Shown one piece after another: positions 17,101-52,982 of a DNA stretch of 64,000 nt (the first letter of the stretch is position 1; every line of letters begins with the position of its first letter). Position numbers and translations under genes: made by a program. The stretch is from assembly GCA_001643675.2 (NCBI GenBank), contig LSRY02000037.1, forward strand, positions 744,001 to 808,000, written 5' to 3'. This DNA is from Monocercomonoides exilis PA203 (Eukaryota; Protista; Preaxostyla). The notes beneath the pieces are model-generated. The model saw only the letters and a program-made list of their open reading frames with translations, ran no database searches and was not told the DNA's origin.

Positions 17101-18223
17101 ACTATTATTATTAGCATAATAATCATTATTAGCATTATTAGTATAATTATTAGTATTATTATTATTATTATGCTCTGTCATATCAGAAGATGATGAAGAT
17201 GAAGATGAAGAAAGAAAAGGAGAAGGAGAAGGAGAAGATAATGACAAACATAATGGAGATGAAGAAGCAGAAGACGTAGTTGAAGAAGAAGAAGAGGAAG
17301 AAGAGGAAGAATGAGGCAGTTCTTCAGATATTCCTTTAAATGCACTGATTGATAGCAGAGATTGAGAGGAAGGAGAAGAAGACGCAGAAGAAGAAGCAGA
17401 AGAAATAGAATGAGAAGAAGAGGATAAAGATGATGATGAAATAGAAGAAGAAGAAGAAGAAGAAGAAGAAGAGGATAAAGATGAAGAAGGAGGTGTTGGC
17501 AATGCAGCTATAGCTGCTAAGGATGAAGAAGGAGACATAAGAGAAGAATAAGAGGAGGAGGAAGAAGGGGAAGGGGAAGGGGAAGGGGAAGGAGAAGATA
17601 ATGAAGAAAGAGAAGAAGAAGAAGAAGAAGAAGAAGAAGAAGAAGAATGAGAAAGAGATAAAGAAGATTGAAGATGGGGAGGAAGAGGAGGTAGTGGAGG
17701 AGGAGGAGGGGGAGGAGGGGGAGGGGGAAGAGGAATATTAATAGAAGAAGAAAGAGAAGAAGAAGAAGAAATGGAAGAAGAAGGTGGCAAAGGCAAAGGT
17801 AATGATTGAATAAAATTAAAATGTGCAGAAGAAGGAAGAGAAGAAGAAGAAGAGGAAGAGGAGGAGGAAGAATTCTTATTATCATTATCAACATCAGCAT
17901 TAACATCAGCATCAGAATTTGTTTCAATAAAATCCGATTTATTTGTAATAGAAAGATTATTATCATTATTAGAAGAAGAGGAAGAAGAAGAAGAAGATAA
18001 AGACATAGAGGAAGAAGAAGAAGAAATATTATCAGACAGAAGAGATATATTATCAGAGAGATGTTGTTGTAGGAGAGGAGAAAGAGCAGAAAGATAAAGA
18101 GGGGAAGAGGAAGAGGAAGAAGAAGATAAAGAAGAAGATGATGAAGATGATGAAATAGAAGAAGAAGAAGAAGAAGAAGAAGTGTTTATTGAAGAAGGAG
18201 AAGGAGGAGAAGGTATAGAAAGA

Positions 18224-18256
<33 letters not shown>

Positions 18257-18400
18257 AGAGGAGAAGAAGAATAAACATTAGAAGATAAAGGACTTGATGC
18301 ATTGTTCATTGAACAGAGGAAGAAAGGAGGAGAAGAAAAAGGTGAGATAGAAGAAGAAGATGAGGAAGATGAGGAAGAAGAGGAAGAGAAAGAAGAAGAT

Positions 18401-18432
<32 letters not shown>

Positions 18433-20371
18433 TAAAGGCGATGGAGAAGGAGAAGGAGACGCAAATAAACTTAAGCCAGGAAAAGAAGAAGATGACGACG
18501 ACGATAAAGAAGAAGAGGAAGAAGAAGAAGAAGAAGCAAAAAGAGGAGAAGAAGAAGAAGGAATAAGAGAAAGATTAGAAAACGATGGAGAAGAAGAAGA
18601 AGAGGAAGAAGAAGAGGAGGAAGAGGAAGAAGAAGAAGAAGAAATAGAAGAAGAAATAGAAGAAGAAATAGAAGAAGAAGAAGAAGAATTAACATTCGGA
18701 GAGAAGAGAGAAAGCTGAGGAGTGAAAGAGATGAGAGAGAGAGAAGGAGAATAAGAAATAGAATTATTATTGATATTATTATTGATATAATTATTATTAT
18801 TATTATTATTTATGTTATTAATCTTTTTCAATGAGAAAGAAAGAGGAGAAAATAAATGGAAGGAAGAAGAATGAGAAGAAGAAGAAGAAGAAAGAGAAGA
18901 AGAGGAAGAGGAAGAGGAAGAAGAAGAAGAAAGAGAAGAAGAAGGAAAAGGAGGAGGAGGAGGAAGATAAAGATGTGGAAAAGAAGAAGGAGGAGAAGTT
19001 GACGAAGAAAGAGAAGAAATAGAAGAAAGAGAAGAAAGAGAAGAAGAAGAAGAAGAATTAATTGGAAGAGGAGGAGAAGCAGATAAAGGCAAAGAAGTTT
19101 GATTTTGATAAATAGAAGAAGCAGTTGCAGAAGAAATCGTTGGAAGAGAAGGAACAGAAGGAAGAGAAGGAAGAAGAGGAGAAGAAGAAACCATATTGTT
19201 ATTATTATTATTATTATCAATGTTATTATTAATATTTTCATTGTTTTCTGTGTTATTTTCATCATTTGGATGGAAATCAACAACATTGGAGACATATTTG
19301 TGGGAATTTTGAATAAAACCTTCGAGATTAGATTGAGAAGATAAGGAAGAAGAGGAAGAAGAAGAAGAAAGAGAAGAAGAATTTGAAGAAGAAGAAGAAG
19401 AAGATAAAATGGAAGATATTGCAGTAGATGGAATAGAAGAAGTTAAAAGAGAAGACAATGAAGAAGCAATCATTGAAAGATCTGAAGGAGAAGGAGAAGA
19501 AATATGATAGGAAGAGGAGGAAGAGGAAGAAGAAAAAGAGGAAGAAGAAGAAGAAGAATTAGAAGAAGGAGAAGAAGAAAAAGAAGAAGAAGAAGAAGGA
19601 TGAGAAGAAGGAAGAGGAGAAGATAATTTTGACGTTGTTTTTTTATTTCTTTTTGATGGAGAAGAAGTTAGAGTTAAAGCAAAAGAGGAAGAAGAGGATG
19701 AGGAAGAAGAAGAAGAAGAAGAAGGAAGAAGAGAAGGAGAAGGAGAAGAAAATGAAGATGAAGAAGATAAAGAAGATGAAGATGAAGAAGAAAAAGTTTT
19801 GTTCTTTTCAATTTCTTCTTTTCCTTCTTTGCCTTCCTTTGTTGGCTCTATTAATGTTTCTGTTCCTTCTCTTTCTCTTTCTCTATCATTTTCTTTCTCT
19901 TTCTCTTTCTCTTTCTCTTTCTCTTTCTCTTTCTCTTTCTTCTCATCAATAATTCCTTCTTCTTCTTCTTCTTCTTCTGTTTTTTCATTCTTTTTGTTTA
20001 TTTCTTCTTTTTTCTCATTCGTTTCCTCTGTTTCCTTCTTCTCTTTCTCTTCCTTCTCTTTCTCCTTCTCTTCCTTTTTCTTCTCTTCTTTCTCTTTCTC
20101 TTCCCTTTCTTCTTCTTTCTCTTCTTCTTTCTCCTTCTCCTTCTCTTTCTCCTTCTTCTTCTCTTCCTCCTCTTTACTCAAGCTCTCCAACACATTCCTC
20201 CAGTACATTTCTTTTCTTCTATCATCCAAAACAATTGTGAATATTTTCTGTTCTCCTTCGAGTGGAGACACTGTTGTGATGGTGATTGAATGAGGAGGTT
20301 TGGAAGATGAGATGGAAGAAGAAGGGGAAGAAGAAGAGGAAAGAGAAGAAGAGGAAAGAGAAGAAGAAGAA

Positions 20372-20410
<39 letters not shown>

Positions 20411-23400
20411 ATAGATGAAGAAGAGGAAAGAGAAGAAGAAGTAGTAGTATTCTGGATTTCTTTATCTTCTTTTGTTTCTTTTGTTTCTTTTGTTTTTGGA
20501 AGAAGAGAAGAATTTAAAGAAGAAGAAGAAGAAGAAATAATATTATTACTAATATTATTATTATTATTTCCGATAGAAGCAGGAGATATAGCAACAGGAG
20601 AAGGTTTATCAGAAGAGAGAGGAAGAGGAAGCAATGAATGAGATGTCTTAGAGGAAGAAGGGAAGAGGGGAAGAGAAGAAGAAGAGGAAGAAGAAGAAAG
20701 AGAAGAAGAAGAGGAAGAAGAAGAAAGAGAAGAAGAATTTGAAGAGGAAGAAAGAGAAGAAGAAAAAGAAGAAGAATTTGAAGAAGCTTTAGAGGAATTA
20801 GATGAATTTGCGCTTGGAGAATAGAAAAATACATTTTGTGGATGGGAATATTGAGAAGATCTTGAAATTAGAGAAGAAGAAGAGGAGGAAGAGGAGGAAG
20901 ATGAGGAAAGAGAAGAAGAGGGAAAAGAAGAGGAAGGAGAAGGAGAAGGAGAAATAGAAGAAGAAGAAGAAGAAGAAGAAGAAGAAAGAGAAGAATTCAC
21001 ATTCGGAACAAATAAAGCAGCATTCGAAGATAAAGAAGGAACAGAAGATATAGAAGATATAGAAGATATAGATGGAATTGAAGACATTGAAGGCAAAGAA
21101 GAAAGAGAAGGAACGGAAGAAAGAGAAGAAAGAGAAGAAGGATGTTGAAAAGGGAAAGCAGGAGTTCCAGAGGAATCAGGAAGAAGGCCATTTCCTGTGT
21201 TATTTATGTTATTATTAGACATATTGTTCATATTGCTTATATTATTACTAATAGTTCTATTGATACTGCTGTTAAATGAAGAAGAAGAAGATAAAGAAGA
21301 AGAAGGAAAAGTAGATAAAGAAGAGGAAGAAGGAAAAGAAGGTGGAGGATATGAAGATAAAGAAGAAGGAGGAGGAAAAGAAGAAGGCATAGAAGAAGGA
21401 ATAGAAGAAGAAGAAGGAGCATAAGAAGAATTCTGAGTGAAGAAAGGAGGCTGAGAAGAAAGATGAGATACAAATGGAACAGCAGAAGGAGATAAATTCA
21501 TTGTTCTTGTTGGATTGGATGAGGAAGAAGAAGAAGAAGAAAGAGAAGAAGAAGAGGAAGAAAAAGAAGAAGAAGAAGAAGGATTAATAGAAGAAATTGA
21601 AGAAGAAGATAAAGGAAGGCTATTAATATTTGTATTCATTCCATTTGAAGGGAATAAGAAAGAAGAAGGGTATTGTTGTTGTTGTTGCTGCTGCTGCTGT
21701 TTATTTGATAGAGGAAAAGAGAAAGAAGAAGAAGAAAGAGAAGAAGAAGAAGAAGAAAGAGAAGAAGAAGAATCAATAGAAGAAGAAGGAGAAAGAGAAA
21801 GAGAAGAAGCAAATGGAGGAGGAGGAGGAAGGAGATAAGGTTGAGAGAAAGGAGAGAGATGAGGAGGAGGAAGAGAAGAGGAAGAAGAAGAAGAAGAAAA
21901 GATATTGGTATTAGTGCTGTTGTTATTATTATTATTATTATTCAATAGAGAATCCGAAGAGGAAGAAGATGAAGAAGAATTAATAGAAGAAGAAGAAGAC
22001 GACGAAGAAGAAGATAATGATGATGAAGAGGAAGAAGAAGAAGAAGAAGAATTAGAAGAAGAAGAAGAAGAAGTTGATCTTTTAGCAGGAATAAACCGAA
22101 ATTGAGTGGACAATATAGGAGGAGCATTATTTGTATTGGAATTAGAAGAAGAAGAGGAGGAGGATGAAGATTTAGTATTTGTGCTTTTATTTGTATCAGA
22201 TGATAGAGAATTCATAGAAGATGTTGAAGAAGATGAAGAAGAAGGTGACGGAGATATTGAAGAAGAAGAGGAAGAAGAAGAGGAAGAAGAATTAGAAGAA
22301 CTAGAAGAAGAACCAGAAGAAGATAAAGAAGCAGTAGAAGCAACCGAATAAATAGAGTTTGTAGTCTTTGTTGATGCATATGACAGCATACTTGGTGATT
22401 TAGAGGTTGATCTTGTACTGCCATTGCTACTATTAATACTATAAATGTTATTATTATTTATTATGGTATTATTAGTATTATTAGTATTATTACTGATATT
22501 ACTGCTGAATGTATTGAAAGAGGAGCTATTGGGATATTCTGAGGGAGACGCATTCATAATACCAGAGATGTTATTAATAGGATTAATGCTATTGATAATA
22601 ATACTATTAGTAACATTAGTACTATTATTACTCTTACTGAATACTTCTCTTTGCATAGAAGAAGAAGATGATGAAGAAGAAGAAGAAGAAGATGATGATG
22701 ATGGATCAGAATAAGAAGGAGAAGAAAGAGTAAAACATGCTTGTTGTCTTTTTCGATCTTGTAACATTTGCTGGGAAGAAGAAGAAGATGTTGATGAGGT
22801 TGATGAAGATGACAAAGAAGGCGAGGAAGAGCGAGAATGAGAAGGAGACGGAGAAGGAGAAGGAGATAAAATAGATGAAAGCAATGGGGCTGTATCAACT
22901 GAATCATTATATTGATATTGCTGTTGCAATTGTTGACTTTGTTGAATATTCTGTTGAATGTTATGTTGCATAGATTGAGGATAACTTTGAATAACACTTT
23001 GATTTTGAACAACATTTTGTGGTTGATTTTGAATGATTCCTGGAGTGGTGCTTGTGTTGATTGGAGGGATCTGCAAGGGAGATGGTGCATTTATTAGACT
23101 GTTATTATTACTACTGCTATTTGAATTAGTATTATTACTATTATTACTATTTGTTATATTACTATTTATGCTATTTATGCTATTAATACTATTAATACTT
23201 ATATTTACACTCATATTAACCCCACTACTACCACTACTATTACTATTATTATTATTATTATTAATACTTTGTCCCATCTTCCTTTTCATTCCTCCTCCTC
23301 TTTCTCTTTCTCTTTCTCTTTCTCTTTCTCTTCCTCCTCCTCCTCCTCCTCCTCCTCCTCCTCCTTCCTTTGATGGGAGCACAGCCATCTTCATCTCCTT

Positions 23401-26400
23401 CTGCCTTGCTTCTTGTAGCTGATGGCAATAGCACCTCCAATTCTGCATTGCGATCTGAACATCTTCTGATAATCGGTTTTTCTCTTCTCTTTCTTCTCTT
23501 TCTGTTTTTCCTTCTATTTTTCCTACTCTTTCTCCTTCTCCTTCTTCTTTGTTTTCTTCTTTGTTTTCTTTGTTTTCTTCTCCTTCTTCAATTTCATTGA
23601 CTTTTTCAATGATGTTTGTATCATCTTCTTTAGTTTCTTCATCTTTAATTTCATCTTTTCCTTTTTCTCCTTTTTCTTCTTCTTTCTTATTGTCATTTTC
23701 ACTTTTATTAATCTTTTTATCTGTAGAAGAAGAAGATATTTGAGATGATGATGAATTAGATGAAGATGAAGATGAAGATGAAGATGAAGATGAAGATGAA
23801 GATGAAGATGTTATGTTATGTTCATTCTCAGTCATTAATTCCAATAGCTTTGGAATGCAACTGTCAACAACTGGATTATGAAAGGCTGACGGCTCTTCTA
23901 ATTGATATTTAAGAAGAGATGATAATAATAATAATGGGAATAATGGGAATAATGGGTATTATAAATAATTTAAAATAAATTAAATTAATATTATTATAGA
24001 AATTAATTAGCAAATGAATAAATAAATAAATAAATTGATAGATAAAAATATATAAGTAATATATAATATCAATGTTGCATTAATAAAAACAACACTCTAA
24101 GCTCTTTCAATTAATCATCACAATATTATTTCTCTTTCATTCCATCCATCCCCTTTTCCATACCTTTCTCCTTCTTCAACGACGACGCCAACACCAGCCC
24201 TGTAGTTCCTTTCCCCTTCTCCATCAGATTCTCCTCATCAATCTTCCTCATCGTCATCTCAAACTCCAATGGAGTTGTTTGTTCTTTTCTAATCCCACCG
24301 CCGTGGCTGAACTCAATCACAGGGCGATGCTGGGATCGGCTGAATTCAGAGGGGAAAAACATCAGAGAAGGGCATTCCAATAGGATGGGGTACATGATGT
24401 CTATGTTGGAATTCCGCTTGTCGGAGAGAGAGGCGATGAAGGAGGCTGGGGTGGGATAGAGGGAAGAAGAGGAGGAGGAGGAGGAGGAGGAAGAAGAAGA
24501 AGAAGAAGAAGATAACAAAGAAGAAGAAGTTGCAGTAGTAGTTGTTGAAGAAGCAGATATCAATGAAGAAGAAGAAGAAGAAGAAGGATTAGCAATATTC
24601 GCACTTCCAGGCAATATTGCAGTATTAACAGTATTATTATTACTATTATTGCTGCTTCCTGATCGATACACCAACGACGACAGCAGCGGCCTTGACCCAA
24701 ACTGACTCGCCGGAAACGAAATCGCCTCTCCTTTGCCCAGAATCATCTCCCTCAGCCTGTCCTTCTCATTCTCCACCAGATACGCCTTTTCTGCATCTCG
24801 CACATCAAAAAACTCGACAAAGCGGTGGAGGCATTTTTGGGGCGTGCTCCTCACTTCCCTGATGGGGCCATAGGCGTTCTCGAGGGAGTGGAAGTAGCAG
24901 TATGTGTCTTGTGGGGGGTAGACGATACTGCGGCGGACGAGACTGATGATGCGGGAGGAGAGAGAGGGGGTGTTGGAGGAAGGGGTGGAAGAAGAATTAG
25001 AGGAAGAAGAAGAAGAAGCGGAGGAAGAAGAAGATGTTGTTGATGTTGTTGTCGTTATTGTTGTTGATGGAGCTGCACCTGTTTCTTCTTCCTTCGCTTT
25101 TTCTTTTCCATTTTTCTTTTCTTCTGTCTCTTTTCCTGTTTCTTCGTCTTTCTCTTTCTCTTTCTCTTTCTCTTTCTCTTGTTGTTGCTGCTGGAGCTGC
25201 TGTTGCATCTTACTCATCCTCAATGCCTCCATCCTCTCCCTCTGCCCAATCAACGACTTCTGCTTCAGCAAAGCCAATGATCTAATTGTAGGCAAATCTT
25301 GAAGAGGTCTTGTTCTACACAAGAACGTCTGTGGTATATTAAACACCACAACCGTCCCGTCATTCTCCGGAGAAACTATTTCTCCGTTCCGCGCGTCGAT
25401 TGGAATTCTCTCTTCTGGAGGCAGGGAAGGGTTGTTTTCAGAGGCAAGCCATTGCTCGTGGAGCTGCTGGAGAGAGCGGTGGGGGATGAAGTAGTGGACA
25501 ATGAGACCCCGATGCATGTGGGAGAAAGGGTGGAGTGAGAAGGAATGATCCATTGGAGAGGAGGAGGAAGAGGGGGAGGATGAAAGAGGAAGAGGAGAAG
25601 AATGAGAAGAAACAGAAGAAAGAGAAGAAGAAGTAGGATTTTTAGTGAGAGGAGGAGGAGTTAATAATAAAGCTGATGCTGATGTTGATGCTGATGTTGA
25701 TGTTGAAATAGAAGTAGATGAAGATGAAGATGATTGTGGCTGTGATTGTGATTGTGACTGTGACTGTGTCAGTGAAGAAGAAGAAGAGGATGACGATGAA
25801 GATGATGATGATGATGAAGTGGTGAATGGAGGCATAAATGAAGAGTGAAAAGATGATGGGGTTGAGTTTGCACTTAATGCTGATGCCATTGGCAATGCAA
25901 CTTCTACAGACTGTGGTGCTGCTGCAAGTGTTGGAGTGTGTGAAGGTGAAGGTGAATGTGAATGTGAAGGTGAATGTGAAGGACTGGATGAAGGAGTTAA
26001 GGAAGGCAATGCAGATGGAGATAGAGACGGAGACGGAGATTGCAATGGAGATGGCAATGGAGAAGGCAAAGGCAAAGGCAGAGGAGACGGCTTCGAAAGT
26101 GTCGACAAAGCAATTGGTAATTTTGAAGAAGAAGGAGAAAATTCAGAAGTACCATCAGGATCTTCCAATAAGGATGCACTTCCAGATTGTTGATTACTAA
26201 TACTCTTTGGAGGTTTAAGGAACGATGCAAGTAAATACTCTCCATTGTTCCCTTTTCTCTTTTTCCTATCTTCTTCTTTCTTCATCGCATTTTGCACAAT
26301 GTTATCCCACTTAGCATCGTCAAAGCTAAGCTTCATCAATTCATCCCTTGCTTTCATCGCACTTTTCAAATTAAAAAACGATACAACAAAAAAGAAATGT

Positions 26401-28115: not shown

Positions 28116-29393
28116 ATGACTGAACAGGAAATCTTTTTTCCGTTGAATGATCCAAGCGCTGATGAATGCAAACCAATTACTGATATTGAAAGTTTGAGAG
28201 TGGAAAAAGCACCAAAAGAGAAAAAGCGAAATTCAAATAGAAATATTTCTCTTGATATTGTTAAAAGTGTTGCAGCGTTTTTTGTTTTGGTCATACACTC
28301 TACATTACTTCAACGAACTGAGTTAAAACACTATGAGAAAAATGGTGTTGAATATCAGTGGCATGTTACAGCAATATATGTTTCACTCACTCAATGTTGC
28401 TCTTCTTTGTTTATGACTGTTTCTGGAATACTTCTGTTACATCCAAAACATTTGAACGATAGCCCCAGAGTAGCAATGAAAATGTTTTTGAAGAGATCAC
28501 TTATTTACATCGTCTGGTGCATTCCTTATAATATGAAGTACATTGTTGAAACAAAGTGGAGAGGGAGATTCAAAAAAACTTTATTCGTTTTGCTCAATCT
28601 TATCATAAATGGAGATGGAACGTTTTGGTATTTATATGTTTTACTGTTTCTTCATCTTGCAACTCCCTTTTTCCAATCTGCATTGAGATCAATTTCCAGA
28701 CTTTCATATGAATTATCGTTGCTTTCTTACTGGCTTGTTTTCCAAGGTTTGAACGGATTACGTTTGTTGATTGACGGGTGGGGGAAAGGCACAAATTTCA
28801 CAAACATGATGTTCTTTGTTTTAGCTGGGCCATTTTTTTATGCATTTGCAGAAGAAGCAGCACACCCAGGGAAAAAATCTGGATATCATTTTGTTGAAGA
28901 TCAAGAAGGAATTTTAAAATGGTTAACAAGCATTAACTGGAAAAAACCTTGGGTTAGAGTTGCGACATTCTGTACTTATATTGGTTCAGCATTCTTCATG
29001 TATTTGATTTGGTCGTATCGAGAAGTTACAGGGCTTCCTAATGGGCTATTTTTAACTTTACCGCACTGTCCATTTAATTCGGTAGTTACAATTTCACTGT
29101 TCTTGTTTATTTACGGTTGTGGGACAGATTGGAACCCTGAATCAAAAATTGGAAAGTTCTTTTATTGGTTTTTCTCTTCAACAGGCTCGTGTACGATGGG
29201 AATATATATGCTCAATGAATTTTTCATATTTCGTCTATTTGGAACTTATTTGCCGATATGGACAGGGAAGAAATGGCTCGATTTCAACCCAGTCTGGTTT
29301 AGCCCCTGTTTGGCAGTGACAGTGTACTTAATATGCTGGATTGTAACACTCATCGCAAAGAAAATTCCTGGAATACGATTCTTTTTCCAGTAA
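28116..29393 (+). CDS. Acyltransferase family 3 (OafA/WecH/YiaH-like membrane O-acyltransferase), intronless
   Basis: RNISLDIVKSVAAFFVLVIH (RxxxLDxxR..H motif), LFMTVSG, FWYLY and GIYM, with about 10 hydrophobic segments in 425 aa. Confidence 0.88.
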   Translation: MTEQEIFFPLNDPSADECKPITDIESLRVEKAPKEKKRNSNRNISLDIVKSVAAFFVLVIHSTLLQRTELKHYEKNGVEYQWHVTAIYVSLTQCCSSLFMTVSGILLLHPKHLNDSPRVAMKMFLKRSLIYIVWCIPYNMKYIVETKWRGRFKKTLFVLLNLIINGDGTFWYLYVLLFLHLATPFFQSALRSISRLSYELSLLSYWLVFQGLNGLRLLIDGWGKGTNFTNMMFFVLAGPFFYAFAEEAAHPGKKSGYHFVEDQEGILKWLTSINWKKPWVRVATFCTYIGSAFFMYLIWSYREVTGLPNGLFLTLPHCPFNSVVTISLFLFIYGCGTDWNPESKIGKFFYWFFSSTGSCTMGIYMLNEFFIFRLFGTYLPIWTGKKWLDFNPVWFSPCLAVTVYLICWIVTLIAKKIPGIRFFFQ

Positions 29394-40742: not shown

Positions 40743-43700
40743 CTATTCACTAAGACTTTGGATAAGACCATTGAATGCAGAACTTGGGTTCGCCAACAGG
40801 TTCGCAGGAGAGTCAAGCTCAGCAACATGCCCTTGGTCCATCACCATGATTCTATCACAATTCATAATGGTGTTAAGACGGTGAGCAATGATAATCATCG
40901 TTTGGCTGCTAAAGACTCTGCGAATGGTCTTCTGTATTTTTGCATCGGTCTCCACATCCACATTCGCTGTTGCCTCGTCCATCACAACAATCTTGCAATG
41001 ATTCAGCATCGCCCTTCCAAAGCAAATAAGTTGGCGCTGCCCGCAGCTGAAGTTGTTTCCTCCCTCAGACATTTGCGTGTCTAGCCCAAACTCCATTCCC
41101 AAAACAACTTCTTTCATCTCAATCAGATCCAACACTTCCCATATCTCATCGTCGCTGCACTTGCTCCCAATGTCCAGGTTGTATCTGAGTGTCCCCGTGA
41201 ACAGCGTGGGGTCCTGGGGGATAATTGCAATTGATCTCCGCACTCTGCTGAGGTCGACCTTAGAGATGTCGATTCCATCGATTAAAACCCTTCCTTTGTT
41301 AGGCTCTTCATCGGGCGCATCCACAGGCTTTCCTGTCTCCATATCTATCATTATGGGCTGGAGCTTTGGATCCAACTCAACAAGTCTAAACAGCGCAAAC
41401 AGCAGAGATGTCTTCCCAGCTCCTGTTCTCCCACACACCCCAATCTTTTCTCCGCCTGCAAACGAGAAGTTCACATCCTGCAGAACATATGGGAGGCCAG
41501 GACGGTATCTGAACGTCACATGCTCAAAATCAACATTCCCTTTCTGTGGCCAGTCAGCAGGGGGATTAATTGCAACCTTCTTGTTGATCTTTGAATACTC
41601 CAATTCCTGTGGCAGATGTGAAGAATAGAAATCCAATCTCTGGTATGATGTCATTCTTGACTCAAGATCGACTGATTGCATCACCATAAACGAGCCCAAG
41701 AACGCAAATGTCATTGAAGCTGTGATTGCCACGCTCAGATTTGCTGGCTCCATGAAGAACCATCCCAGAAGAATCACACCCGTTGTGAACACCATTGTGA
41801 CAATCTGATTGTACATATCTGCCCATGATTTTCCTTCCATGAACAGCACAAGCCGAACAGACCAATCATCGTTTGCCTTGTAGAACTTCTGTCTCCAGCT
41901 TTCTTCCAAATGGAATGCTCGGATTGTCGACAGACCGGCACCAGTAACAGTCTCACTGAAGATCGAAAGCACAGGCGAGCGAGCAATAGCTTCCAGCCTT
42001 TGAAAGTTTCGAGCTGCACGTGAGTAAAGAACAAGAATCACACAGTAAATTAAAAGCGCAGGCAGCCCAATCGCAAGGAAGAACGGAGTGTCAACTGCAA
42101 TAATCACAATTTGCCCAACGATTCCGATTGCCATATTAACCACTTGAATGAACAACCCAAAGAGAGATGTGTCCACCAGGGACATATCTCCTGTGAATCT
42201 ATTCAGGATTCTTCCCATTGGCGTTGTGTCAAAGAATGAAGGCGGACAGTGCACAACATTCTTCAGAAGCGTGTCATGGATGATGCGAATGGAACGAACA
42301 ACTGCAAAGCCAGAGACAACTGCCCTCAGCGATTGGAAGATGAACCCAAACACGCACATTAATCCATACATTCCAATCTTCCATCCATAAGGAATCACAT
42401 CCAACTTTAAAGGATTCCCCACAATGCCCAGCCAGTATGACTGGAATATCTGTGTTCCTTCAGCAATAATAGCCAAAAGAATGTAGATAATGAATCCCCA
42501 CCATGGGAACAATGAGCTCACATAGGAGATGTAGTTGGAAATTGGCACTGCTTCGGTCTCATACTCTTCTTCTGTGATAATCTGCTTTCCTGCTTCAGAC
42601 CCTTTTCCTTCCAAATCTTTGGCTGTTGCACCAGTCGATTGGTCGCTCTTTGCATGATGCTTGTGATGACCAGAATGTTTGTGTGACTTTCCTTTTTTCT
42701 TCTCCATCTTCTCGCCTTCTTTGCCTTCTTCTCCTTCTTGCTTCTCATTTCCTTCCTCTTCTTCCTCTTCCCCATCGCTTTCGCTTTCTTCCTCTTCTTC
42801 TCCTTCTTTGTGCTTCTTATCCTTCTTGTTCTTCTTTTTGATGATGAATTGACTAAAATCAATCCCTTGTGCGAGCAAATCCTCGTATTTCCCCTGTGCA
42901 GCAATAAGCCCATGCTTCAAAAGAATAATGTTATCTGCACGATCCAAAAACTGCAGCTGGTTCGTCATCAGCAGTCTTGTCTTGTCCTTCAGCTGGCCGC
43001 AAATGCACTCCTCCAGCAGATACCTCCCCACGTGTGCATCGACTGCTGAAAGAGGATCATCCAAAATGTAGATGTCTCTGTCTGAATACACAGCACGCGC
43101 CAGTTGAATACGAGCTTTTTGCCCGCCACTCAGATTCACTCCTTTCTCTCCAATGGCTGTTTGGTCTCCAGCAGACAAAGTCCTGAAATCGGGTTCCAAT
43201 GCACACACACGCACCACATTCAGATACTTCTCTTCCTCATAAAACGATCCAAAAGTAATATTACCTCTGACTGTGTTGTTGTTGATCCACGCCACCTGCG
43301 GGCAATACGCGATAGAGCCACGATATCTCACTTCTCCTTCCAATCTGTCCATATCTCCAATGATCGCTGCCCCGATAGAAGACTTGCCAGACCCTACTCC
43401 ACCCACAACCATCGTCAAAGAGCCCTTGGGAAGGGTGATGTTCACAGACTGCAGTGCAATCTTGTTGCGACTCGACGGTGTGGCTGAAGGAGAAGGAGAT
43501 GGCGAGGGAGTGGTCGAGGGTGTTGTTGAAGGTGGTGGAGTCGATGACTGGGCAGAAATGGCTGGTGTTACGTTTTCTGGTGCATTCCCTTTGTCATCTT
43601 TTGATTGCTCTGAGAGAGAGAATACAGAAGGCTGTGTTTCAGATGCGGTTGTTGCAACTGGCGCAGAAATTGTTGTTGATTGGGTCACAACAGCTGGCTC

Positions 43701-45728
43701 ATTGTTCTCCTCTGGAGCTGATTCAGCAGTCTTGTCTGAATCAGAAGTTGATGTTTCTGTATTTGCTTCCTCTTTCTTTTCTTCTTTCTTTTCCTCTTTT
43801 GTTTCTTCTGCCTTCTCAGCTGTTGAAGAAGAAGAAGAAGAAGATGATGATGATGATGATGATGATGCTTTGTCTTCATCAAAGATTGTTGGAATTGGAG
43901 TCTGTTCTGATTTAACATTATCCTTCTGATCTCCTTGATTGCTGTTGTTTGCCTTTGCATTTTCTTTTTTCTCCGCAGTTTGCTTCGCATCCTCCATTTT
44001 CCTGTGCTTGGCTTCTTCCTTCAATTTCATCTTCTCTTCCATTGACAATGGAATTTCTGGAGGATCTCCCCATTTGAATGTTCCATTTGTGATTGTCAAT
44101 GCAACCTCTGCATCATCTGGCTCGTTGATCACTTCCTTCTTCAATTCTGGCAAGAGAAGGAAATCTCTTATACGCTTTTGACTGATGTGGATCATTGCTG
44201 TAGCCTGCAGATACATTGGTATCATGTTCGTTTCTCGTGTCATCATTGTCAAAAACCCGATGTTTGGCATCACTTTCACAGGGAAGTCAAACTGATTAAC
44301 ATTGTAAATGGCAATGTATGTACCGAACGTAGCTATGTTCACCAAAGGTGGAATAGCCCTAATCATCCCTGACATAAATTGCTGCCAGAATGAAAAAACC
44401 AAAACATCTCTCTCTTGCTTTCTTCTTGGAATATCAATTTTGCTGATAAACACATGCTCTAACCCTGTGAACTTCACCACACGCATCCCTTGCAATGTTT
44501 CGTTGGTGACTTTGTTTCTATCATCGTTGTGGCTTAGATATTTCTTCATATTGCCTGCCAGAAGTGATGATATGAACACTTGGATAGGGAAGAATAAAAA
44601 GAGTGTGATGAGAGACATAATACCGACCCATCCAAAATCAACGCACACAAAAACGAATGGCATGATGATTTCAATGGGAATAAATGCAAGCATAAACGGC
44701 ATCCAAATCATATCACAAATATTTTTTGAATCTGCAGCAAGCAATGACAAAAGTCGTCCCGTGTCTATATTGCTTTGTGATGTAATGTTCAGCAAAAGAG
44801 TTTTGTTGTAAATCATTCCGCTTAATGCTGTCTTCACATTCGCAGAATAATGAAAGAAAATTCTTAAAGCCCATGAATTTATGATATTCATGCAAGGACA
44901 AAGAATGAGAATAATAGCCGGAGCATAAGGAAATGTTTCGTTAGGATTGAAAACCTTCCGAGCAACAACTTCAAGAATAAGTTTCATCATATATGGTTGA
45001 ATGAAATAACTCACATAGCTTTGAATTTAAAAAAATAACTTTAAAATTTTTAAAATTTGAGTGAATTCATACCAAAGAGTCAGAAATATCATTGCTGCAA
45101 CCATTTTATACGTTCCAACTCCAAAGACAATCGTTGCTGCAAGGGATGGCTTTGAAGGTTCTTTCATCTTTGTGCTATAAAGAATACACATTCAAATGAA
45201 AATTTTTTGCAAAAACAAAAAATAAATATTTTCATACTTTGGATTCCTGGCTTTTTCCTGCTCATATTCCTCTAATTTCTTAACATACTCAACGTATCGT
45301 TTCATCCAGTACTCTTCTCCATTTTTAGTTGTGACTGATGTGAGATCAGATTTTTGTGTTTCGTAAACGTCCTCATCTTGGATAGGCTTGCAACGGAACA
45401 CAAATTGAAAATAGAAACAGAAAAACACGTTGCAGCAACCCCAATGTGCTTCCTCCGTGTTCCTCCTGCGTTTGATCTCAGTCTTTGAAGCTTGTGATTT
45501 CTTCTTTTCTTCAATATATGCGTGTTCGGGAGGTGCGGACATCGATGGCTCTTGATTTATCATTGAAGAAGGAGAAGAAGGTGGTGTTATTTTCGATGGT
45601 TCCTGGGACTTTTGTGGGGCATATTGAACTATTGATATTTCAGACGTTGCAGATTCTGAATCGCGTTCTTGAACATCTGGAAATGTGGTAGATGGTTTAA
45701 ACACTTCGGGCGAAGATGATTCGGACAT
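40743..45728 (-). CDS. ABCC/MRP-type ABC transporter (TMD-NBD-TMD-NBD), ~1,622 aa, 3 exons
   Basis: GGVGSGKS, IGEKGVNLSGGQKAR, LDDPLSAVD, FFDTTPMGRILNRF, GRTGAGKT, FSCGQRQL, DEATANVD, IAHRL. Exons 45728-45238, 45174-45073 and 45018-40743 are in phase. Confidence 0.96.
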
Positions 45729-46445
45729 TATTAAACAAATTTAAAATTTTGAGTTAATAATTCCGAATACTGATAATCAAACAATGGGAAATTTCCCATA
45801 AGCAGAATTAGTTGAAAACCTGGTTTCGTCTCCTAATTTTTACCATCAATTTACTCAAAAATTGAAATAAATGATGTATGTGTGTTCATGATTCCAATTA
45901 AAAATAAAATTATTTCAAAAAAATTGTTTTTATTGAATGGGAATAAAATTTTAGAATTTAGAATTTTTTATTCTTTCAATATTATGTTTAATCTTATATT
46001 TTTGTAAGAATAAATTGGTTCTTGAAGAATTTCACGAAATAAGTTTCTTCTTTTTTCATTATTATTGTAAAAACAATTGAAAGGTTGATGTTTTCCAGTA
46101 AATCAATCAGTATATTTTCAGAAACTTTTCAAAATAACTATATTTTTTTGTAGTTCGATTAAAGTGAGATGAAAAACAAGCATGGAATGGATGCAGTACA
46201 ATGATTGTGCAAATGAATAGCTAAAAAATTGCATAAACTATTTATTATGATAAAAAAATAGGTTTATTTCGTTCTTTAAAAAAAAAATTATAAGTTTGAA
46301 TACAGATGATTAAATAATTGCATTTATTTGGTAGATTGCATCAAAAGCATTGTTCTTTCTTTCTATCCATCTAACTTTTTTCTTTCATGTTTTCCATTTA
46401 ACATCCATTTCTATGCCACAAAGTGATATGACCTTCTCCTCCACC

Positions 46446-48952
46446 TCAATCTCTCTCTTCTCCTTCTCCATCATCATCTCCTCCATCATCTTCATCTGCC
46501 CCTTCACTGGATGCAATTTTACTCGAACTCATTCCCCCCTTTTTCCCTCTCTTCCCTTTCCCTGACCCCGACAGCCCTTCATCATCTCCTCCACTCTCCC
46601 CGACAAAGAAATACTGCCCTGCCAGCTTCTGCTCTCTGTCTTTAACCGAATTCAGCTTATTCACTCTTGGCCTGAAGTTCGATGGATCTCTTCTGAATGT
46701 AATCTCCAGCTGTGTCAAAAACGAGTTCAGACCAGTTAGCAGCGTCTCGGGTGCTTTTCCCAGTGCCTTTGAACCAGGTGTCCCCTCAAAGACGATCACA
46801 TGGTCTGCTAAATATGTGGCCATGATGAAGTCATGCTCAACCACAAATGCTGTCTTCTTCGAGTGCAGGATGTATCTTTTGATCACTTTTGCTGTCACAA
46901 CTCTCTGTTCGGCATCCAAATACGCTGAAGGCTCATCAATCAGATACACATTGGCTGGTTTTCCCAAGCACACCACAATAGCCACACGCTGAAGCTCTCC
47001 TCCAGACAGATACTGCACTTCTTTGTCCATCAGCTGCTCAATCATCATCGGCTTCAGCACATCCGTATTGAACTGCGCATCCCCAAATCTCGCCCCAATC
47101 GCCCTGTGAAGCAGTTCTCTCACTGTGCGGTGTGGATTCGCCTTGTCAGGCTTCGGAGAAATCTTCTGTGGTTTGTACGAGATATTCAACAAGGGAACCT
47201 CAACTCCGCCGTCTGGCTGCAGAAGCCCTGCAAGCAGATTGACAAGTGTTGTTTTGCCTGTCCCGTTCTCCCCCAGCAGAACAATGATTTCTGAGTCTGA
47301 GAACTGCCCTGCTTCGACTGTGAGCTCAAATGTGCCGAGCTTCTTGTGCATCTCAGGGTAGGTGTATGTGGCTAATGCACCTTTGGATTTGTCTTCCTCA
47401 TCCGCTGTTTCAGAAATCTATATTAGAAATGAATAGCAATTATTAATGTAAATAATTATAAATAATTATAATAATGTGTGATTTTATTATTAAATGAAGA
47501 TTGTTATTAAACAAATTAACAGAAAGGATAAAATTAAAGAAAAAGATGAATTTATCTAAAATAACTTCATTTTAAATCCAACAAACCTTGAAAGAAAGCT
47601 CAAACGGTCTGAAACGAAGATTTTCAGAAGGAATGTGACCAGCCAAGAAGACGTTGATACCATCTCTCACACCCATTGGGAATGTAACAACACCGTATGC
47701 GCCCTGCTGCCCATACAGCACACACACAAAATCAGACAGATAATCCAAAATAGACAAATCATGCTCCACGCAGATAACATAACTTTAAGGTTAATTTTTT
47801 TGATTTTATTTTATTTTTTTGAAGAAAGAAACAATTGAATAATTAAATTAATAGAGATGGATAAATGAGCATATAATTGAAAAAAAGCATCAAATATTTA
47901 ATTAAATAGAAGATTAAGCCCAATGAATCAAAATCAAACTTTGAATCAGTTAAAAGATCACGGATTGTCCGTGCAGCGCGAAGTCTCTGACGAATATCTA
48001 AGTATGATGAAGGCTCATCAACCATATATCTGTATAAAATGAAAAAAAGCAAAGCAGAGATAGTTGATAAATAACAGAGGTGATTGCAATATTTAAATTT
48101 TGAATTTCAATTTACACAAACACATCAGCCTTTTGAACAGCAATAAGAGCAATGCAAAAACGTTGAAGTTCACCTCCGGATAAATCTTCAATTGCACGAT
48201 CTCTAACATTAACAAGATCAAGTTCAACAAGAAGTTCTTCCATCATTCCTCGTTGATTCTTTGCACCTAAAAGTGCTTCAACTTTTCCGTGAATAACTTG
48301 CTGAATTTGATCAACGTATTGGGGTTTGATAATTGCTTTCAGATTTTCCTCCAAAACCTTCGTAAAGTAGTTTTGAAGTTCACTTCCTCTAAAGTAGGTC
48401 AAAATATCTTGCCAATCTGGAGGATTATCAAATTTACCGAGATTTGGCTTTAACTTTCCTGCAAGAATACGAAGTGCAGTTGACTTTCCAATACCGTTTG
48501 TTCCAACAAGCCCAAGAACTTGCCCAGGCTTTGGAACAGGTAACCTGTGAAGTTTAAATGCATTTGGCCCAAATCTGTGTGTGCACTCTTTCTCCAGACT
48601 TTTTGGCAAATTAATAATTTCAATGGCCTCGAATGGGCATTTCTATTTATGATCATATCATAACGACGAGAAAAAATTAAAAAATAATTAATATTTTCTA
48701 AAAAATCAATTCAAGGTCTGTACCAACCTTAACACAAATACCGCAACCAATACAAAGTTCCTCTGATATGAATGCAAGTTTATCTTCGTGCTGTACTTCA
48801 ATGCACAACTTTCCAGCTGTTTTTGAGCCTTGTCTGACCACCGGGCAAAATCTTTTGCATTCCAACGAGCATTTCTTTGGCTTACAACGATCTGCTTTAA
48901 CAATAGCAATACGTTGTAATTTATCTGTATCGTCGCTCCTCTTTCTGGACAT
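46446..48952 (-). CDS. ABCE1: ABCE1/Rli1 Fe-S ribosome recycling ATPase, 5 exons
   Basis: RIAIV..CKPKKC..C.RFCPV and [13 protein letters not shown] (two 4Fe-4S clusters), [16 protein letters not shown] twice, [12 protein letters not shown], and C-terminal FRPRVNK. Confidence 0.98.
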
Positions 48953-49455
48953 TTTTGGATCAAATAACAAAGATCAGACCTTCCATAGATCATAATTTCT
49001 TTTAAACTAGTTTTTTTCAATCATAATCTTTTTCTTGGTATCGAAATATAATATCATTTCATTATATGTTTCTATGTATCAAGTTTAAAATAGCAAATTT
49101 TTCATTTATATATTTATATTATTGCATTTTTTATGTTCAATATTTAAATTAAATATAAATTTTTCAAGGTTTTGAAAAGTTAAAAATTGATAAAAAGTGT
49201 CATTTACTGTTATTGCTGACAAAATAAATATTAGGATAAGATCAATTTTCAACTTTTTCACATATTTTGCTATTCCTAATTCTCACAAATTAATTCGGTT
49301 TTAAAAAATGTTAATAGAATAATTTAATATCTTCCTGCTTATAAAAAATTCTGAAATCAATTTGCATTTACCATTTGTGAACAAAAACTGTTTGACAAAA
49401 ATAAAAAAGACATTACAATTTGCGCAAAAAATCCCTAGCATATTAAAAAATACCA

Positions 49456-49771
49456 GACAAGATCGATTTCTCAATAACCGCAAGAGGAATAATTCTGACA
49501 ATTTTCCTCAAAATATATCTCATCAATACAAATTCAATTGATAAACAAGACTTACAAAACTTCCTCGTTTGTGCTAAGAAAAAATAATTTTCAAAATCTC
49601 TGAGAAACTCAAAATCCTGTTTCTCCAAGAATTAAATAACAATTCTTTCTGAGCACAAACGAGGAAGTTTTGTAAGTCTTGTTTATCAATTGAATTTGTA
49701 TTGATGAGATATATTTATAGGAAAATTGTCAGAATTATTCCTCTTGCGGTTATTGAGAAATCGATCTTGTC
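49456..49771. repeat. Near-perfect long inverted repeat (120-bp arms, 76-nt loop)
   Basis: 49456-49575 is the reverse complement of 49652-49771 with 2 mismatches by eye. Diverged similarity extends about 70 bp further outward. Confidence 0.95.
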
Positions 49772-49946
49772 CGATATTTTTTGCGATGTCAGGTATTTTA
49801 TTCGATATCTGTATTTTGTTTTTAATTGGCTTTGAACAATCCAATCAAATTATTTTTTCCTATCTTTTGTTATCTAAATTACAATTATGTCAGAATTTTT
49901 ATATAATGATGCAAGCCATCTAAAACTTTAAATGTAATTAATGAAA

Positions 49947-50385: not shown

Positions 50386-50945
50386 TATGAATTTGATGTG
50401 AAAAAGTTCCATTTGTGTAAAAACCCACACTGGGCATTTTCTATCGAAAAAATTATCTGCAGACTTTAATTTTGAAGAACATTTCGAAACGAAATGTCAA
50501 ATGTGGGATTTTGCCCAAGAACAGCATCTTCACATCATTGCTTATCATTCATATTGGAAAGAAACAAATATGAATGAATTGAATCTCTCTTTGAAACAGA
50601 TGTTTTAATATTTTCATAGCAATTAATCCGTAGTTTTTCTCTCAACAATTCAAGGAAGAACATTAAAACATTTTGAATGAAAGATAATACAAAATGAAAA
50701 GAATTCGATGGACTTCATGAAAAAATTGGATAATAAAAAATAAAATCATAATGATAACTCATATATACAACATTTGCTTCTTTTCAATATGAAAAACACA
50801 TTTCGGGATTATTCCATAAAGATAATTAATCCTGCAAACAGGAACAAAAAAATTACTCAAGAAAAATTGAAAAAAAAAAACATTTCATTTATTAACTTCT
50901 GCATTTTTTATTTTATAGATTTTCAGTTTATTATTATTATTATTA

Positions 50946-51395
50946 CAGTCTAAACCGGATATAATCACATCGGTTTTTGCACAACTTTTTGTGACTATAT
51001 CCGATTGTGATTATATACGATGATGCTCAACACAGAAAAAAATAAAAATTAATTAATTAATTAATTAATTTTGGGTCGATTTTTTCATTTTTGAAAATTC
51101 TTCATAAAAACGCATTTTTCATTTGCTTGATCAATTTTGATCATGAACGCACATTATATTGACTTATTTGAGCACATTTTTGAAAAAGTGAAAAATTGAA
51201 AATTTTGATCAAAAAATCGATTTTTCATTGAAAAAATCACCCATAATAATAAAAAATGTGATTATATATTTTCAGCCCTGTGATTATATTCGATGGAAAA
51301 TGAATGAAAAATAGGCCAAAAATGTCGGTGCATGGAAAAATGTGACTATATTCGAATGTGATTATATTCGACGTGATTATATCAGGTTTAGACTG
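50946..51395. mobile_element. 450-bp MITE, Tc1/mariner superfamily (pogo/Tigger-like TIRs), TA TSD
   Basis: TA|CAGTCTAAACCGGATATAATCACATCG ... CGACGTGATTATATCAGGTTTAGACTG|TA. Multiple internal GTGA(T/C)TATAT repeats, no coding capacity, inserted in a (TAT)n tract. Confidence 0.93.
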
Positions 51396-51529
51396 TATAA
51401 TTATTATTATTATTATTTTCGTTTTTATTTTTTTATTTTTATTTTTTTGTAAAGGAAAAAAAAATATTTTGACAAAGATAAAAATAAAAAATAAAAAAAA
51501 AATAAAAATAAAAAAAAATAAAAATAAAA

Positions 51530-51874: not shown

Positions 51875-52121
51875 TTTGTTCTAATTTCCGTGCTTTCAAC
51901 AATTTTTTGATATGTCTTTTTCGAATATTCCTTTTAAACTCCTTTTTTTTTATAAACTCATTTGAAAAGTTCACTAACCTTTTACAAATTTGAAAACAAA
52001 AATCCGAGAAATTAAACAAATTCTTAAAGCTCATGAATCTATTTGAAAAGAAAAAGCAAATAAAAAAATTAAGAAAACTCATTCATGTTTGAAAATCTCA
52101 ATATAGTTTTAAATAATTAAT

Positions 52122-52760
52122 TTATGCAACAACGGAATATTTTCCAGCATCTCTTGTATCACCCTTTCCAGTGAACTTCAATGTGTTCTTTCTAACAGTT
52201 CCTGAAGTAGCCCATTGTTCAACAACAACCATTCCAGCAGAAGTCATGCTGTGGAAGAAACATCCATGATTTCCTGTGCTCCAGTTGGGATATCTACCAT
52301 TGAAGAAGGTAGCAATAGCGCATCCTTTCTTTGGATATTGAGAACGTGTAATCTTTGGTCCCTCTCTCCATGTCTTAACCAATCCGATATCTTTGCAGAA
52401 CCACTGAACGAGCACAACACACTGTCCATTTCCATAAGTTTTATGTCCAACAATGGAATCAACATTTCCAGGGAAGTAATGTCCTCCAGAAACAGGCTTT
52501 GGTGGATTTGGGCTTGGTGGTGATGGTGGAGATGGTGGATTTGGGCCATTCTGTGGAATTTTCAATTTTTGCCCAACATAAATCAAGTTGGCATTTTTGA
52601 TTCCATTTAAGCTGCAAATTGCACTAACTGTTGTTCCGTATTTTTTGGCAATTGCGGACAAAGTATCACCTTTCTTTACTGTGTAGATGATATATCCATT
52701 ATCTTCAAGGTCAATAAATTCTTCTGCAACAGCGCAAGCAAACAATAATGTGAAAAACAT
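52122..52760 (-). CDS. Secreted LysM + Tae2/Dae2-like (BPSL0067-type) cysteine peptidoglycan amidase, intronless
   Basis: Signal peptide [12 protein letters not shown]; canonical Lys[45 protein letters not shown]; Pro linker; then [33 protein letters not shown] with candidate catalytic Cys and His. Confidence 0.88.
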
Positions 52761-52982
52761 TTTTCAATGATTGTTCCTTTCACAAAAACGATCTTTAAAA
52801 CCATACGTTAGAAGAACTGATCAAACAATTCCATAACCAATTTTAACGTTCACAAATGAGTTTTTAAGTTATCAAAGAAGCTAAAAATTGCACAAAAATT
52901 AATTGCGTTCATTTCTGTGATAACTTATTTAAAAATTATCAATACATATAAAATTAATTCTTTTTTTGTTTTACATTTTTTC

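Follow-up and report, generated by a model that had tools for sequence, protein, structure and literature searches.

A Tae2-family predicted peptidoglycan peptidase with a LysM module in the oxymonad Monocercomonoides exilis and its likely tick-independent bacterial origin

How a protein with the motifs of an interbacterial toxin comes to be encoded in a protist genome, and what it may do there, is the question raised by one short gene of Monocercomonoides exilis PA203, which lives in the gut and has no mitochondria. The gene lies in a stretch of 64,000 nucleotides (contig LSRY02000037.1, positions 744,001 to 808,000; hereafter the window, to which all positions below refer). On its motifs, an earlier sequence-only reading had proposed the capture of a type VI secretion system (T6SS) effector of the Tae2/Dae2 type. 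On balance, we favour the view that it encodes an oxymonad nuclear Tae2-family cysteine peptidase with a LysM and a predicted signal peptide, likely of a bacterial origin independent of the tick gene, and likely cutting the peptidoglycan cross-links of engulfed bacteria. The features of the locus are as follows.

52122..52760, minus strand: intronless open reading frame of 212 aa plus stop, full-length form of M. exilis MONOS_7044 (translation, database match, RNA contigs)
52725..52760, minus strand: predicted short signal peptide, residues 1–12 (hydropathy heuristic, likeness to MONOS_7175)
52554..52685, minus strand: LysM, residues 26–69, most similar to that of LysM-GH19 proteins from metamonads (Pfam, comparison)
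52551..52628, minus strand: in-frame 78-nt GT..AG stretch, residues 45–70, an intron in the public model, read through in all contigs listed
52491..52547, minus strand: Pro/Ser-rich linker, residues 72–90 (sequence)
52125..52481, minus strand: predicted Tae2/BPSL0067-family papain-like (NlpC/P60-CHAP superfamily) peptidoglycan peptidase domain, residues 94–212 (HMM, 6WIN, AF2/Foldseek)
52419..52421, minus strand: putative catalytic Cys114, opposite Cys23 of 6WIN (alignment)
52266..52268, minus strand: putative catalytic His165, opposite His73 of 6WIN (alignment)
52045..52790, minus strand: stretch under the RNA contigs of X5 and X6, which do not mark true transcript ends

The best database match of the window protein is MONOS_7044. 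In the public model of this gene (P0002) positions 52551–52628 are excised as a 78-nt GT..AG intron, which leaves 186 aa; the 212-aa form is absent from the protein collection searched. Since residues 45–70 are removed, the LysM is broken in the public model. Three contigs cross the stretch ungapped: X6 (52045–52746) and X5 (52275–52790), from RNA runs of one study, and X9 (52172–52742), an RNA or DNA run from a different study. None of the splice joints listed falls at 52551–52628; seven more joints exist beyond these, and contigs drop rare variants. Because the contigs run through the 78-nt stretch, the intronless reading is, rare forms aside, the better one, the modelled intron being false, and the public gene model is corrected here. 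MONOS_7044 is transcribed, with the modelled intron retained. The intronless gene of 212 aa that had been read from the letters is therefore borne out by the open reading frame and the contigs, and its LysM (E 4.3e-21, Pfam) and Pro-rich linker are confirmed as well. The claimed signal peptide stands as a heuristic prediction: hydropathy suggests one (KD8 2.81, A-V-A before E13), the N-terminus resembles that of MONOS_7175, and a basic n-region is missing, as in other metamonad secreted proteins.

Contig depth was considered as a measure of expression and set aside: it is about 2,200–2,600 over the gene and 30–106 over the neighbouring ABC gene in X5 and X6, but these runs were found with this very stretch, and depth cannot rank genes. 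One X5 record (13) carries 30 unaligned letters at its 52790 end, 30 nt upstream of the ATG; they may stem from a library adaptor, a leader sequence or a very short 5′ exon.

By sequence and predicted structure, the window protein is a member of the Tae2/BPSL0067 family with the Tae2 fold, as had been claimed. The motif series given for it is present in full, with GQCVVLV at residue 112, WREG at 131, KGCAIATF at 145, GNHG at 163 and VVEQW at 179. The NCBIfam model BPSL0067_fam (NF033857) scores 82.5 bits over residues 108–208, where its curated cut-off is 27. With the catalytic domain alone as query, PDB 6WIN (Tae2) is the sole convincing solved structure (E 6.5e-16). The AF2 model built from an 80-row alignment (pLDDT 97) was used instead of that from the single sequence (pLDDT 35). 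Its top Foldseek match is again 6WIN (E 6.8e-9, TMq 0.87, rmsd 2.1), with no other match at E≤0.001; the runners-up are staphylococcal phage lysin and amidase structures. The structural comparison thus agrees with the family assignment. Cys114 and His165 lie opposite Cys23 and His73 of 6WIN, which are named as the catalytic residues of Tae2 (Hayes et al., bioRxiv 10.1101/2020.04.10.036376). In the alignment of 150 domains (5 of the 155, shorter than 95 aa, were dropped) 145 retain the Cys and all 150 the His, and 143 have D or E at position 181. We consider it very probable that the window protein hydrolyses peptidoglycan. Separately, Cys147 and Cys167 occur as a pair in 7 of the 150 domains, six of them in the oxymonad-containing clade though not in Blattamonas; this could be a disulfide gained in secreted forms.

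The gene resides among eukaryotic genes, namely CFAP58, Arf, RING and ABC. The RNA runs X5 and X6 skip the introns of the ABC neighbour and the DNA run X1 does not, and intergenic bins have zero depth in X5 and X6. The GC3 of the gene is 0.30, within the range of the window (0.17–0.74); for 103 bacterial homologues the median is 0.60 and the 5th percentile 0.37, both of them higher. The codon use of the gene is also closer to that of the host. The public record of MONOS_7044 sits on a contig of 1,059,404 bp. No DNA contig bridges the gene and its neighbour among those listed, so their linkage rests on the M. exilis assembly, which is described as long-read and decontaminated (PMC8767320). A six-frame search of the window returned no immunity-like gene (best E 0.45), in agreement with the earlier statement that none is adjacent, and no second Tae2 copy. 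What a working bacterial Tae2 effector depends on, a periplasmic immunity gene beside it and a T6SS that delivers it, is absent from the locus, as expected of a domesticated copy. A tae-derived gene that resides in a eukaryotic genome and is transcribed, as this one is, has two of the traits of the Dae class.

Could the gene still be a bacterial contaminant, or could the public model with its intron-broken LysM be right? The reading frame is intronless, M. exilis is reported to be grown in mixed culture (PMC12308965), a bridging DNA contig is missing among those listed, and the 78-nt stretch is in frame with GT..AG ends. Against these points, three runs from two studies give ungapped contigs, GC3 and codon use are host-like, the N-terminus is common to the gene and to the host paralogue MONOS_7175, and the assembly was long-read and decontaminated. 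What weighs most against contamination is that another oxymonad, Blattamonas nauphoetae, has an orthologue in its genome, BLNAU_6536, which adds to the case made earlier; it has a predicted signal peptide and a Tae2 domain 60% identical to that of the window protein, and no LysM. With the spliced eukaryotic neighbours and this orthologue, contamination is very unlikely, and the two ideas together, largely refuted already, are extremely improbable. Residence in the eukaryotic genome, as first proposed, is hence well founded.

Some further features of the window were noted. About 700 bp downstream of the gene (50944–51397) lies an element of ~450 bp with terminal inverted repeats beginning TACAGTCT (2 matches, 0.01 expected), to which very many DNA records align; it looks like a high-copy MITE, presumably of the Tc1/mariner type. 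An extended imperfect palindrome lies at 49400–49827, its two 209-nt arms being 86% complementary and separated by 10 nt; it is likely a foldback repeat, and very many DNA records fall in its bin. The ABC transporter gene or genes, with GT..AG introns skipped in RNA, occupy 40743–48900 (minus strand); many differing letters at 44500–45500 suggest close paralogues. On the plus strand, 28116–29393 is a single 425-aa reading frame with Acyl_transf_3, a family that often serves surface acylation in bacteria, and possibly a further lateral acquisition. A low-complexity reading frame of 3244 aa (14101–23835, minus strand) has a GC3 of 0.17, a strong strand skew and no confident domain.

How far the gene extends among metamonads was examined by profile search and trees. 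In the supplement of PMC10703272, MONOS_7044 and BLNAU_6536 are the sole members of their orthogroup across 19 metamonad columns, M. exilis having one entry; the Streblomastix assembly, which bears on this absence, is fragmentary. Among 1.84 billion representatives, a profile search returned three matches at E≤1e-30, after which the score falls from 160 to 97 bits. With the matches of a further search added, the group comprises ten distinct clusters, which form one clade with a support of 99/100 in a 64-row IQ-TREE tree, and the clade was recovered again in trees of 150, 110 and 353 rows; outside it, the top identity is 44%. Six of its members form a subclade (100/97) in which Blattamonas branches first, followed by two proteins with signal peptide and Tae2 and then by three LysM fusions (100/93). 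Sister to the six are four proteins of 124 aa without signal peptide (P0123, P0290, P0291 and P0293). One LysM fusion, the JGI protein P0003, is LysM-SH3b-Tae2, with a catalytic domain 80% identical; its SH3b is reminiscent of Trichomonas GH19 and NlpC/P60 fusions. No signal peptide is visible in P0003, whose N-terminus is cut, or in P0004, whose N-terminus is odd.

The phylogeny thus gives a single clade that runs from signal-less through signal-bearing proteins to LysM fusions. We infer this order of steps from trees with a midpoint root (LG+G4, about 130 columns; the bootstrap of the 64-row tree had not settled). The attachment of the clade to the bacterial part shifts from tree to tree and points to no single donor, and no tick sequence is among the rows. 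The signal-less sister group could itself be eukaryotic. Its DNA context was not found in the metagenome scan (24 loci, 31–44% identity), in GTDB (best 80 of 174, 37–50% identity) or in the viral contigs searched.

Different from the Tae2 domain, the LysM points to a source inside the host. Over residues 1–71 the window protein shares 82% identity with the start of M. exilis MONOS_7175. The latter resembles GH19 endolysins at its C-terminus and is entered under GH19 in supplement table 2 of PMC12308965. Among 119 database matches of the window protein, MONOS_7175 has the best LysM match (44 of 49 identical), followed by one protein built like it and by three Histomonas proteins (40–41 of 47–49). 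None of 359 Tae2 proteins outside the clade has a LysM (the sets overlap in part). In view of the identity over residues 1–71, the LysM anchor was likely added inside the protist after transfer, by shuffling from its own LysM-GH19 genes. The LysM fusion seen in the sequence-only reading therefore holds and gains a likely source.

Judged by their gene neighbourhoods, the bacterial relatives resemble effector-immunity pairs of the T6SS. A Tae2 reading frame was present at 103 loci, of which 92 had a downstream frame picked (11 did not), and in 72 of these 92 the directly downstream gene belongs to the STY0301 family, which we take to be Tai2; these neighbours encode small proteins whose N-termini resemble signal peptides. 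When 50 of the 80 genome loci were tested for a T6SS, 47 of the 50 carrier genomes had a sheath gene, as did 1 of 14 controls. Core genes of the system lay close by, inside the flanks retrieved, at only 14 of 104 loci, the query source being one of these. By the same heuristic as above, none of 109 bacterial forms near the clade has a signal peptide. Some bacterial members of other branches do have signal or lipoprotein N-termini (P0157 and P0252, for example), so secretion is not unique to the eukaryotic forms.

The family also travels on other carriers. Fusions with eCIS_core, RHS, WXG100, T4SS and PG_binding_1 were seen, seven records are on plasmids, and relatives occur on 12 viral contigs (L105–L116). 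Since prophage contigs and the eCIS, RHS, WXG100 and T4SS fusions carry it as well, "T6SS effector" names the family and not a proven donor. In 11 of the 12 viral contigs the immunity-like gene is kept, and 4 of 6 large reading frames tested near the viral copies are integrases or a transposase; these copies thus fit effector-immunity cargo and not endolysins. Several, beside integrases, look like effector-immunity pairs at prophage edges. An origin from a phage endolysin, considered when Atlas listed Uroviricota clusters, is unsupported: besides the immunity-like partners and the integrases, there was no match among 50,697 GenBank phages.

Is the oxymonad gene a capture of its own, or was it received second-hand? 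It had been claimed as an independent capture of an interbacterial toxin; the Tae2 family and the immunity pairing of the bacterial relatives uphold the toxin part, and independence from the tick is a probable inference. Tick Dae2 has a conserved disulfide, Cys58–Cys89 (PMC9779611). The catalytic Cys is the sole Cys in the mature Blattamonas protein and in the signal-less sister group, which makes this disulfide impossible there; in the window protein the extra pair (147 and 167) is spaced 20 residues apart, compared with 31 in the tick, and the tick trait is absent from the oxymonad proteins. Among the best 120 matches, all named non-oxymonad proteins are bacterial. On these sequence comparisons, the oxymonad gene probably stands outside the tick Dae2 lineage, and we consider an independent bacterial origin quite probable. 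It is rather improbable that the source was another eukaryote, for instance an arthropod with dae2, or a carrier other than a T6SS, such as prophage cargo or an eCIS, RHS, T7SS or T4SS toxin. Second-hand transfer finds a parallel in the patchy relatives of dae2 in a springtail, a fungus gnat and a scorpion, for which secondary transfers are proposed (bioRxiv 10.64898/2026.03.13.711553), yet the Cys pattern and the bacterial matches oppose it. The 12 viral contigs and the fusions speak for another carrier, as does a FastTree placement of the clade near seven viral rows, which is loose and was distrusted; the immunity-paired viral copies, the adjacent integrases or transposase and the blank phage search speak against a phage.

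With an independent bacterial origin as the preferred reading, the history may be sketched as follows. A signal-less, immunity-paired bacterial Tae2 would have entered the lineage at or before the common ancestor of Monocercomonoides and Blattamonas. The host has no peptidoglycan to protect, so the immunity partner would have been dispensable and lost after transfer. A short eukaryotic signal peptide would then have been gained, a state that Blattamonas appears to retain, and in a later step a signal-LysM-Pro cassette would have been acquired from resident LysM-GH19 hydrolase genes. We lean, a little less firmly than towards our overall reading, to an independent oxymonad domestication of a T6SS-family toxin in which every stage is visible: the signal-less effector, the signal peptide alone in Blattamonas, and a LysM anchor (once with SH3b) taken from lysozyme-like genes of the host. 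It would be the first LysM-anchored Dae, paired with LysM-GH19.

As for mechanism, the signal peptide may route the protein via the ER to food vacuoles, where the LysM would keep the enzyme on glycan strands. Tae2 is reported to cleave the DD cross-links between mDAP and D-Ala (PMC10469887), and Cys114 and His165, with Glu181, would likewise hydrolyse the D-Ala-mDAP cross-link, while GH19 muramidases bearing the same anchor would cleave the glycan; the GH19 enzymes of Trichomonas are described as muramidases (PMC12612818). M. exilis is described as bacterivorous by phagocytosis and as possessing lysozymes (PMC12308965). Tick Dae2 is broadened to Gram-positive walls and cannot cross an outer membrane (Hayes et al., bioRxiv 10.1101/2020.04.10.036376); Gram-negative prey would hence have to be permeabilised first.

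The same enzyme, of the same origin, might instead act outside the cell, released or held on its surface, where it would lyse and thin the bacteria of the gut around it, chiefly Gram-positive ones, whose walls are exposed. The secreted Dae2 of ticks directly kills Gram-positive skin bacteria (bioRxiv 10.1101/2020.04.10.036376), the T. vaginalis NlpC_A1 is surface-located according to the literature, and a LysM would suit exposed walls. The mature window protein is cationic (pI 9.5), but bacterial homologues are about as basic (median pI 9.2), and charge therefore does not discriminate between the roles. Feeding by phagocytosis of bacteria argues against release, which we regard as unlikely; digestion of prey is the fairly likely role.

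A separate lineage and a new architecture would join the few known eukaryotic captures of interbacterial toxins. The bare, signal-only and LysM-anchored proteins form a natural series for testing what domestication does to substrate range, and with tick Dae2 widened to Gram-positive walls, convergence is now testable with the oxymonad proteins. For M. exilis, which cannot be cultured without bacteria, the protein is a candidate peptide-cutting partner of the GH19 lysozymes in bacterivory. If this is true, a matched endopeptidase-muramidase pair lets a mitochondrion-free protist open its prey, and a false intron hid the gene in databases. Chou et al. in 2015 reportedly described several independent tae transfers, protists included; such repeated transfers and the antibacterial toolkits of metamonads are already known, and the surprise is limited accordingly.

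The earlier statement that such a gene was undescribed in oxymonads agrees with the literature searched, in which we found no report of Tae2 or Dae2 in oxymonads or other metamonads; an earlier listing as a transfer candidate (LGT table S9 of PMC6759080) is possible. The words Tae, Dae, type VI and BPSL0067 have no occurrence in PMC12612818, and the main texts of PMC6759080 and PMC10703272 likewise lack the words amidase, peptidoglycan, LysM and type VI. MONOS_7044, LysM and amidase are absent from the main text of PMC12308965, and MONOS_7044 from the rows listed of two of its supplements.

Among known systems, the Tae2 of the bacterial Tae2/Tai2 pair (6WIN) agrees with the oxymonad protein in fold (TMq 0.87), in its catalytic pair and in the family HMM that it matches. 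Different from it, the bacterial forms near the clade have neither signal peptide (0 of 109, heuristic) nor LysM and are followed by a STY0301-family gene, and the context of delivery and immunity is wholly missing at the oxymonad locus. Like the Dae2 of ticks and mites, the oxymonad protein is a Tae2-derived Cys/His peptidase in a eukaryote, with an added signal peptide (predicted here), no immunity gene and, by analogy, an antibacterial role. It belongs, however, to another supergroup, is fused to a LysM and a Pro linker, lacks the tick disulfide in its basal oxymonad member, and would likely serve feeding rather than immunity. The third comparison is with the laterally acquired toolkit of metamonads (NlpC/P60, GH19, GH25, GH3 and AMP-Lcn972; PMC12612818). 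As far as the accessible text of that source goes, the toolkit has no Tae/Dae member, and it assigns the endopeptidases of T. vaginalis to NlpC/P60 and not to a T6SS-effector family. Both nevertheless have wall hydrolases of bacterial descent that carry signal peptides (predicted here) and shuffled SH3b and LysM modules, and the N-terminus of the M. exilis LysM-GH19 protein is that of the Tae2 fusion as well.
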